The notes under the pieces are model-generated. The model was not told the origin of the DNA. It did not search any database and was given only the letters and a program-made list of their open reading frames with translations. Positions 7,467 to 42,483 of a stretch of 44,004 nucleotides of DNA are shown in pieces. Where the stretch lies: assembly GCF_003334765.1 (NCBI RefSeq), contig NZ_QOWT01000033.1; one strand, 5' to 3'. Both the position numbers and the translations under genes were made by a program. Origin of the DNA: Escherichia coli (GTDB lineage: Bacteria > Pseudomonadota > Gammaproteobacteria > Enterobacterales > Enterobacteriaceae). The first letter of the stretch is position 1, and each line of letters opens with the position of its first letter.

Positions 7467-7480
7467 TTGATTTACATCAA
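7467..7480 (+). promoter_or_regulatory. FNR box TTGATttacATCAA (narK promoter)
   Basis: Perfect match to FNR consensus TTGAT-N4-ATCAA, about 60 bp upstream of the narK ATG. Confidence 0.75.
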
Positions 7481-9331: not shown

Positions 9332-9345
9332 CCCATCACTCTTGA
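9332..9345 (+). promoter_or_regulatory. FNR box TTGATcgttATCAA (narG promoter)
   Basis: Perfect FNR consensus about 100 bp upstream of the narG ATG. Confidence 0.8.
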
Positions 9346-9446
9346 TCGTTATCAATTCCCACGCTGTTTCAGAGCGTTACCTTGCCCTTAAACATTAGCA
9401 ATGTCGATTTATCAGAGGGCCGACAGGCTCCCACAGGAGAAAACCG

Positions 9447-40653: not shown

Positions 40654-41397
40654 TTATTGGCGAATCAACATATACAGGCGGAACAGATAGATGAGCAATA
40701 TGGCTGAAATCAGGTTGCTCAAGGTGTTCGCCAGTACGGCACCAATTTCCGGGGTTAATGCGGCAAAAGAAGAGGCAAAAAGCAGCAACAGTGTTTTTGC
40801 CAGCAACCAGCTCAGTACTGCGGGTGCCACCAGACGCATATTCGCCCAAGTCAGCCGCATACTGCTACGCATCGAGGCAAAAACGCCCATTTTGTCCTGT
40901 ACCAACATCACCGGTGCCAGGGCCAGTAAAATGGCCATGATAATTCCCGGAACGACCACCAGCATGATGCCAATCTGTACTAAAAGGGTAGTCAGAAAAA
41001 TCAGAATAAATAACTTTGGCAATATCGGCGCACTGGCACCAATAGCTCGCAGCGCACTGACTCTCTGACCCGCAGACACCAGCTGGATAATTAATATTAC
41101 GCCTCCGGCGAGAATGGCGTTACCGATTAATCCTGAAAAAGTGGACGCCGCTGAAGCCTGCAGCAAAATTTGTTGCTGTTCCGGTGACATATTCTGAACC
41201 AGGTCGAACAACCCACTACTGCCGCTAACGGGCACGCCGTCATTGAGCTGCGCAAGCTGTGCATCACTGGGTGAGAAAACATGCCCTAACACCACTGTGA
41301 TAAACGCACATAGCAACGATACCAACAGAATGGTCATAAATTGATTACGGAAGAAATTTCCGGTGTCACGGTATACGGACTGCGCCGTGATAGACAT
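40654..41397 (-). CDS. yciC: UPF0259 inner membrane protein YciC
   Basis: 247-aa ORF ([32 protein letters not shown]...). Confidence 0.93.
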
Positions 41398-41591
41398 GCA
41401 CTCTCCTTGAGTTTTATGCAGGTGTTAATTAGCGGGCAATTGTACCCTGGTTAAGCCTCGGGTGGCAGCATCAGGTCTTGTATGGAAAAGCATATCTTTG
41501 TAAAGCGGAGGTAATTGCTGGCCTTCAGGCATGGGCAAATCGCGGCAAGTGGCGACCGAGTTAATATTTGCGTAGCGAAAATATTTAAAAA

Positions 41592-41605
41592 TTGATTTAA
41601 ATCAC
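41592..41605 (+). promoter_or_regulatory. FNR-like box TTGATttaaATCAc upstream of ompW
   Basis: 13 of 14 match to the FNR consensus about 155 bp upstream of the ompW ATG; ompW is known to be anaerobically induced. Confidence 0.55.
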
Positions 41606-41753
41606 ATTAACCAGGATTCTCAATGCAACTTCTAAATTAATCCAGATCAATAAAGGGTGAATTATCATATGTAATGTGATCTATGTAGGATCATTTGTTA
41701 CTCCAATGTAGGTATATTCGTCACGTTTTTATAACCATAACGACGGAGCGGAT

Positions 41754-42407
41754 ATGAAAAAGTTAACAGTGGCGGCTTTGGCAGTAACAACTCTTCTCTC
41801 TGGCAGTGCCTTTGCGCATGAAGCAGGCGAATTTTTTATGCGTGCAGGTTCTGCAACCGTACGTCCAACAGAAGGTGCTGGTGGTACGTTAGGAAGTCTG
41901 GGTGGATTCAGCGTGACCAATAACACGCAACTGGGCCTTACGTTTACTTATATGGCGACCGACAACATTGGTGTGGAATTACTGGCAGCGACGCCGTTCC
42001 GCCATAAAATCGGCACCCGGGCGACCGGCGATATTGCAACCGTTCATCATCTGCCACCAACACTGATGGCGCAGTGGTATTTTGGTGATGCCAGCAGCAA
42101 ATTCCGTCCTTACGTTGGGGCAGGTATTAACTACACCACCTTCTTTGATAATGGATTTAACGATCATGGCAAAGAGGCAGGGCTTTCCGATCTCAGTCTG
42201 AAAGATTCCTGGGGAGCTGCCGGGCAGGTGGGGGTTGATTATCTGATTAACCGTGACTGGTTGGTTAACATGTCAGTGTGGTACATGGATATCGATACCA
42301 CCGCGAAGTATAAATCTGATGGTCGTAAACTGGCTAAAGGCAGTTATAGCGACAATGTACGCCTTGACCCGTGGGTGTTTATGTTCTCGGCAGGATATCG
42401 TTTTTAA
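41754..42407 (+). CDS. ompW: outer membrane protein W (8-strand beta-barrel)
   Basis: 217-aa ORF (MKKLTVAALAVTTLLSGSAFAHEAGEFFMRAGSATVRP...) with signal peptide and C-terminal ...SAGYRF. Confidence 0.93.
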   Translation: MKKLTVAALAVTTLLSGSAFAHEAGEFFMRAGSATVRPTEGAGGTLGSLGGFSVTNNTQLGLTFTYMATDNIGVELLAATPFRHKIGTRATGDIATVHHLPPTLMAQWYFGDASSKFRPYVGAGINYTTFFDNGFNDHGKEAGLSDLSLKDSWGAAGQVGVDYLINRDWLVNMSVWYMDIDTTAKYKSDGRKLAKGSYSDNVRLDPWVFMFSAGYRF

Positions 42408-42411
42408 TTTT

Positions 42412-42459
42412 CTCTGCAAAACCTCTGCAAAACTCTTCTGCAAAACTCTTCTGCAAAAC
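42412..42459 (+). repeat. four tandem direct repeats of TCTGCAAAAC (11-13 bp period)
   Basis: Copies at about 42413, 42424, 42437 and 42450, between the ompW stop and the integrase stop. Confidence 0.85.
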
Positions 42460-42483
42460 TGGTCATCAAATGACCAGTTTTTT
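42458..42483 (+). terminator. rho-independent terminator hairpin after ompW, overlapping the integrase stop codon
   Basis: ACTGGTCAT-CAA-ATGACCAGT stem-loop followed by a T run; the integrase TGA stop (42466-42468) sits in the hairpin and its last codons are encoded by the stem and T run. Confidence 0.75.

Follow-up and report, generated by a model that had tools for sequence, protein, structure and literature searches.

The DNA between yciC and ompW is the experimentally mapped ompW control region of Escherichia coli and carries a conserved dyad at the CRP site

The 356-bp intergenic DNA between the divergent genes yciC and ompW (positions 41398 to 41753 of the window, i.e., of the whole 44,004-nucleotide stretch that was analyzed) raises the question of which regulators act on ompW and through which sites. 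An initial annotation of this interval had proposed an FNR-like box, a second palindrome that might bind another regulator, and a leader long enough to host the targeting of ompW mRNA by small RNAs. The yciC gene is on the minus strand, with the end of its start codon at 41397, and ompW is on the plus strand, with its ATG at 41754; the surrounding gene order, tonB-yciA-yciB-yciC-ompW, is that of E. coli. Of 5426 complete E. coli genomes, 5423 contained the interval. When positions 41398 to 41813 were compared with strain K-12 MG1655, no base differed, and therefore the published data on the K-12 ompW promoter apply directly to the window. Indeed, all of the sequences quoted by Xiao 2016 (PMC4886647) matched the window at the positions predicted with a start site at 41725. 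The interval is the E. coli ompW control region, its sites have previously been mapped by experiment, and it is in this sense already known.

It is highly probable that the interval as a whole is explained by a sigma-70 ompW promoter in its downstream 160 bp, which integrates FNR, ArcA, CRP, and NarL and gives rise to a short leader. Binding and its effects were established by others on the identical sequence; the present analysis contributes the mapping onto the window (Table 1), the motif statistics, and the conservation. For the latter, ompW loci from 80 Enterobacteriaceae species were collected, and the 200 bp upstream of the ATG were aligned. Conserved blocks were found amid variable DNA, namely, the FNR box at -81.5, AATGTTAAATTA, the dyad, the NarL heptamers, TATATT, and the Shine-Dalgarno region. 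The K-12 promoter is curated in RegulonDB (PMC13058942), and a 2026 phylogenetic-footprinting paper has matching peaks for FNR (twice), CRP, NarL, and ArcA/Fur near the core promoter; a paper on the LysR-type regulator STY2660 names ompW merely in passing.

Table 1. Positions of ompW and of its regulatory features in the window
Feature	Position	Strand	Sequence and basis
Candidate marsox MS-C homologue	41567..41596	+	TTTGCGTAGCGAAAATATTTAAAAATTGAT; suggested by positional homology with Salmonella only
FNR site -126.5, repressing	41592..41605	+	TTGATTTAAATCAC; EMSA, mutation, deletion (Xiao 2016, PMC4886647); ChIP-seq (Myers 2013)
FNR site -81.5, activating	41637..41650	+	TTAATCCAGATCAA; 9/10 consensus; EMSA (Xiao 2016, PMC4886647)
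Position homologous to Salmonella ABS-1	41655..41670	+	Alignment; AATGTTAAATTA in most enterics, GGGTGAATTATCATAT in E. coli
cAMP-CRP site -42.5, catabolite-sensitive activation	41675..41690	+	TGTGATCTATGTAGGA; Xiao 2016 (PMC4886647)
Dyad TGATC-N7-GATCA, centre -40	41677..41693	.	TGATCTATGTAGGATCA; right arm overlaps -35 region
NarL 7-2-7 site -18.5, nitrate repression	41699..41714	+	TACTCCAATGTAGGTA; EMSA (Xiao 2016, PMC4886647)
-10 hexamer TATATT	41713..41718	+	7 bp upstream of start site; boxed in Fig. 2A of Xiao 2016 (PMC4886647)
ompW transcription start site	41725 (G)	+	Published 5' RLM-RACE; window identical to K-12 here
5' untranslated leader, 29 nt	41725..41753	+	From start site and ATG; Shine-Dalgarno GGAG at 41745-41748
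ompW coding sequence	41754..42407	+	217 aa; last ~100 nt unlike K-12
Predicted RybB 5' seed pairing site	41758..41774	+	AAAAGUUAACAGUGGCG; ompW codons 2-7 (+5 to +21); RNAduplex

In the published 5' RLM-RACE experiment, a single product was obtained, which placed the start site at a G that precedes the ATG by 29 bp, in agreement with the earlier genome-wide map of Mendoza-Vargas 2009 (in Xiao 2016, PMC4886647). About 327 of the 356 bp are consequently untranscribed with respect to ompW and represent promoter or intergenic DNA. The -10 hexamer is a conserved feature: in 79 of the 80 loci, TATATT precedes the ATG by 39 to 43 bp. The start site is downstream of both the FNR-like box and the palindrome, rather than upstream of them, and both are therefore promoter elements. 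The long leader that had been proposed is not compatible with this start site, which leaves only 29 nt; so short a leader would hold the ribosome-binding site only.

Small-RNA targeting was considered separately. RybB, a sigma-E small RNA, and MicA have both been published as repressors of ompW, and the RybB-ompW interaction has been reported to be conserved among Escherichia, Salmonella, and Citrobacter, with Klebsiella as an exception; the alignment made here agrees with this pattern. K-12 RybB and MicA were duplexed (RNAduplex) against the first 149 nt of the ompW mRNA. The best pairing of the RybB 5' seed was predicted within codons 2 to 7, outside the interval, at -15.5 kcal/mol (a value reached by 4.4% of shuffles), compared with -8.4 kcal/mol for the leader alone. 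In 58 of the 80 species, the best RybB duplex was located in the coding sequence, within its first 30 nt, and in every example listed it ended between +21 and +30. By this computation, RybB most likely pairs with codons 2 to 7, and the idea that the leader hosts the small-RNA target was not borne out. For MicA, the best duplex of nucleotides 1 to 24 with the same 149 nt was equaled by 38% of shuffles, and no MicA site on ompW was assigned since this is no better than chance.

These results also bear on an RNA-based interpretation of the palindrome, in which a long ompW 5' leader would carry it as a hairpin or as a host for small-RNA pairing. Such an interpretation could appeal to the known repression by RybB and MicA and to the single-stranded DNA fold of the palindrome, which at -3.7 kcal/mol is a little more stable than that of shuffled sequences (z = -2.9). 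However, the single RLM-RACE product 29 nt before the ATG, matched by the earlier genome-wide map (PMC4886647), leaves the palindrome outside the transcript, the best RybB seed duplex is found in the coding sequence and not in the leader, and the arms are invariant without co-variation, which points to sequence-specific recognition of DNA. We give this interpretation hardly any credence. As a hairpin or terminator proper, the palindrome was rejected on the same grounds, i.e., the weak fold, the location upstream of the start site, and the lack of co-varying arms. An Rfam scan of positions 41300 to 42500 with E values of up to 1 returned a single meaningless snoRNA match downstream of ompW and none in the region itself.

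The FNR-like box at 41592-41605 was confirmed; it agrees with the consensus at 9 of 10 positions and is a genuine FNR site according to ChIP-seq, EMSA, and mutagenesis. It is, however, the repressing site of the promoter, and the activating site at -81.5 had been absent from the initial annotation. When the window was scanned for TTGAT-N4-ATCAA with no more than 1 mismatch, 7 matches were obtained, compared with 2.25 expected from shuffles, and 2 of the 7 were inside the 356-bp interval, whose proportional share of the expectation is about 0.02. With the FNR-D154A protein, EMSA demonstrated binding to both boxes, as verified with site mutations, and a TCAA-to-CTGG mutation in the -81.5 site lowered anaerobic expression about 3-fold; repression from -126.5 requires prior occupancy of -81.5 (Xiao 2016, PMC4886647). 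The ChIP-seq table of Myers 2013 likewise gives an ompW FNR site at -126.5. Neither center is at the classical activating position of -41.5 or -61.5, a point on which the original authors agree (PMC4886647). Rather than through direct class I or class II contact, activation of ompW by FNR has been proposed to occur by countering H-NS, which silences the promoter aerobically (Xiao 2016, PMC4886647).

The two FNR sites differ in how widely they are conserved. In 77 of the 80 Enterobacteriaceae loci, the -81.5 position, at an unchanged distance from the ATG, was occupied by a box with at least 8 of 10 consensus positions; the conserved form of this box is TTAAYC-YR-GATCAA. A box of the same quality (at least 8 of 10) at -126.5 was found mainly in Escherichia, Citrobacter, and Salmonella, although its left half, AAATTGA, is kept more widely. 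Under oxygen limitation, FNR at -81.5 would activate ompW, and a second FNR dimer at -126.5, together with ArcA, would then damp expression.

Three perfect FNR consensus boxes were noted elsewhere in the window. The box at 9342-9355 belongs to the narG promoter and precedes the narG ATG (K-12 1279759) by 105 bp. The box at 7467-7480 lies between two large divergent open reading frames, at a position that we take to be the narX-narK intergenic region. The third, at 17078-17091, is within the purU coding sequence and is probably due to chance.

ArcA repression of E. coli ompW has been published, also in an independent ChIP-seq target list, and is described as FNR-dependent (Xiao 2016, PMC4886647). 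In Salmonella, an ArcA site, ABS-1, was demonstrated at -70 to -55 (PMC3358236). The alignment showed that in most Enterobacteriaceae an ArcA-type box (AATGTTAAATTA) adjoins the -81.5 FNR site at the homologous position, but this box has diverged in E. coli, where positions 41655-41670 read GGGTGAATTATC. Because ArcA repression of ompW is reported to be FNR-dependent, the E. coli ArcA site may lie elsewhere than at this position. Further upstream, SoxS/MarA boxes have been demonstrated in Salmonella, where marsox box MS-C is TTTGCATAGCGTGAATATGTCAAAATTGAT (PMC3709825). The stretch of the window that is homologous to MS-C in position, a candidate at the level of the alignment, extends into the left half of the -126.5 FNR site.

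At the downstream end of the promoter, the site TACTCCA-AT-GTAGGTA consists, as read from the sequence, of two inverted heptamers with a 2-bp gap, each of which agrees with TACYYMT at 6 of 7 positions. In EMSA, phosphorylated NarL bound this site, and a TAC-to-CAT mutation relieved repression (Xiao 2016, PMC4886647). The inverted heptamers keep their symmetry through matching changes in other genera, e.g., TACTCATTTGTGAGTA in Enterobacter. With nitrate, phospho-NarL at -18.5 would block the core promoter.

The palindrome TGATC-N7-GATCA does exist, but its coordinates had been misassigned: positions 41657-41675 read GTGAATTATCATATGTAAT and hold no TGATC-N7-GATCA, and the dyad is found about 20 bp away, at 41677-41693. 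It is the single exact match in the 44 kb, where 0.06 would be expected and where 6 of 100 shuffles contained one. In keeping with the suggestion that it might bind another regulator, the dyad coincides with the published cAMP-CRP site at -42.5, i.e., a site for a CRP-family regulator. The dyad overlaps the CRP 16-mer, and the NarL site is just downstream. The published cAMP-dependent EMSA shift with CRP was abolished by deletion of TGTGA, and induction by galactose was gone as well; the effect of CRP was assayed with a lacZ fusion on glucose versus galactose (Xiao 2016, PMC4886647). We infer that this 5-bp deletion was confounded in vivo since it displaces the two FNR sites, too, by half a turn of the helix relative to the promoter, and the contribution of CRP was therefore not isolated in that experiment.

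The CRP assignment is less clean than that of FNR. The left half-site, TGTGA at 41675-41679, is perfect (5 of 5), and all 79 distinct sequences of the alignment share it. The right half at the canonical N6 spacing, TAGGA in E. coli, agrees with TCACA at 2 of 5 positions and is unconserved except for the GA of GATC. The 16-mer as a whole has 3 mismatches, and at that level the window gave 124 matches compared with 161 in shuffles; the consensus scan was accordingly rejected as standalone support. The center of the published 16-mer is at -42.5 and that of the conserved dyad is at -40, with the class II reference near -41.5. Without glucose, cAMP-CRP on the TGTGA half-site of the dyad, near -42, would activate ompW.

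What is conserved among the species is the dyad. Its form is GTGATC-N7-GATCAC in most Enterobacteriaceae, with GATCAT as the right arm in E. coli, and it was found at a fixed distance of 36 to 37 bp from the -10 hexamer in about 75 of the 80 species. The arms carried 1.81 bits per position, compared with 0.94 for the 7-bp spacer, of which there were 30 different forms. The conserved partner of TGTGA is a TCAC(T) at 11-bp spacing, which scored a mean of 3.77 of 5, in contrast to 2.42 of 5 for the partner at N6. This N11 partner is 5 bp, or half a helical turn, too far away for a single CRP dimer.

The near-invariant arms and free spacer would suit an operator, (G)TGATC-N7-GATCA(C), for a further dimeric regulator, a competitor or partner of CRP at the -35 region. 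They would equally suit a two-register CRP switch, in which an activating center at -42.5 and a nonproductive one at -37.5 are mutually exclusive. Along the same lines, the arms with their flanks resemble CRP half-sites (AATGTGATCT, AGATCACTT) whose GTGA/TCAC cores are 11 bp apart instead of the canonical 6, and the right arm makes a poor -35 hexamer (2 to 3 of 6, by reading), so that its conservation is difficult to attribute to promoter function alone. Against either version, the right arm has been lost in Pseudocitrobacter and in Kluyvera ascorbata, while the left half-site is retained (as TGTGATC in the former and as TGTGAC in the latter); the left half-site would accordingly be the essential part. 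Moreover, C, A, and T all occur at the outermost position of the right arm, and it is common for genuine CRP sites to combine a strong half-site with a weak one. The cAMP-dependent binding of CRP to this fragment is published and needs TGTGA (Xiao 2016, PMC4886647). On balance, a further regulator or a two-register switch is unlikely. If the dyad were nevertheless more than a CRP site, the published model of the ompW promoter would be incomplete. We know of no regulator with this motif, and the dyad is, to our knowledge, unlike the motifs of Fur, OxyR, LuxR/SdiA (lux box), SlmA, DeoR, and NorR and the T-N11-A of LysR-type regulators.

A different function for the same letters would follow from the three GATC sequences, two in the dyad and one in the -81.5 FNR box, if these formed a Dam-methylation-sensitive element at which methylation or SeqA modulates the regulators. 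All three are conserved in nearly all 80 species. The two in the dyad are 11 bp apart and the one in the FNR box lies 32 bp upstream, so that, as read from the sequence, they occupy roughly the same face of the helix. However, GATC is perhaps a by-product here, since it belongs to the optimal CRP half-site TGTGATCT and since a G often precedes ATCAA in FNR sites, and the conservation reaches the flanking T and A, beyond GATC itself. A literature search combining ompW with GATC, Dam, or undermethylation found no paper linking them. A methylation-sensitive element is thus quite improbable. Simplest, if itself doubtful, is the reading that CRP binds mainly via the perfect left half-site and that the right arm would have an additional role, which could be that of a second CRP register at -37.5, of a site for another factor, of a constraint from the -35 region, or of a Dam/SeqA effect of the GATC pair; the literature search returned nothing on any of these.

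Two stretches next to the promoter were also examined. Toward yciC, a 30-codon pseudogene fragment of a YkgJ-family cysteine-cluster protein is annotated by the NCBI pipeline at 41425-41514 on the minus strand. For a segment within this stretch, at about 41484-41508 (AAAAGCATATCTTTGTAAAGC), conservation extends to Lelliottia and Huaxiibacter, and the annotated stretch may instead be yciC promoter DNA. A candidate yciC promoter is the sigma-70-like match CTGCCA-18-TACAAT (9 of 12) at 41439-41468 on the minus strand, directed toward yciC, although the number of sigma-70-like matches in the scanned region was no higher than in shuffles.

On the other side, identity with K-12 runs up to 42304, after which (from 42305 on) the last ~100 nt of ompW are replaced, so that OmpW of the window has 217 residues (...TTAKYKSDGRKLAKGSYSDNVRLDPW...), compared with 212 (...TTANYKLGGAQQHDSVRLDPW...) in K-12. 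Directly downstream of ompW, within the region 42305-43822, are a phage integrase gene (42466-43596, minus strand) and an excisionase gene. The 3' end of ompW has been interrupted by a prophage, whose DNA encodes a new C-terminal segment (possibly a surface loop) and keeps the reading frame open. The same ompW-prophage junction was found in 1729 of 5426 complete E. coli genomes, and the 217-residue protein resembles OmpW of E. albertii, C. amalonaticus, and C. sedlakii. OmpW is a receptor for colicin S4, and the swap of the C terminus could change its receptor specificity. At 42413-42460, past the ompW stop codon and before the integrase gene, is a 13-bp tandem repeat, TCTGCAAAACTCT, in 3.8 copies, followed by the inverted repeat CTGGTCATCAAATGACCAG; this repeat stretch probably belongs to the attachment or terminator region of the prophage.

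The ompW promoter is a textbook-like case of a single promoter that integrates signals for oxygen (FNR, ArcA), carbon (CRP), and nitrate (NarL), as was published in 2016 for the same sequence. Beyond correct annotation, the practical weight of the present analysis is small. Its one small addition comes from the comparison of species, in which the conserved element is the dyad, with an 11-bp gap between CRP-type cores, and not the canonical 16-mer of the literature.

The closest known system is the E. coli K-12 ompW promoter itself (Xiao 2016, Front Microbiol 7:799), to which the promoter of the window is identical and onto which the sites and the start site map one-to-one; the sole difference is the 3' end of the gene, due to the prophage insertion, outside the interval. 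The ompW promoter of Salmonella Typhimurium has the same architecture, and its FNR box, dyad, NarL-like heptamers, and -10 hexamer all align with those of the window. However, Salmonella and most enterics keep the ArcA box GTTAAATTATAAGAAC well, whereas E. coli has diverged to GGGTGAATTATCATAT. With the promoters that have two FNR sites and peak microaerobically, which Myers 2013 compare with cydAB, ompW shares one activating and one distal, damping FNR site as well as co-repression by ArcA, but its sites are at -81.5 and -126.5 and not at the classical -41.5 or -61.5. Finally, in common with class II CRP promoters (TGTGA-N6-TCACA near -41.5), ompW has a perfect TGTGA with consensus flanks at about -42 and cAMP-dependent binding and activation; unlike in those promoters, the second half at N6 is weak and unconserved, the inverted partner is at N11, and the site is centered at -42.5.
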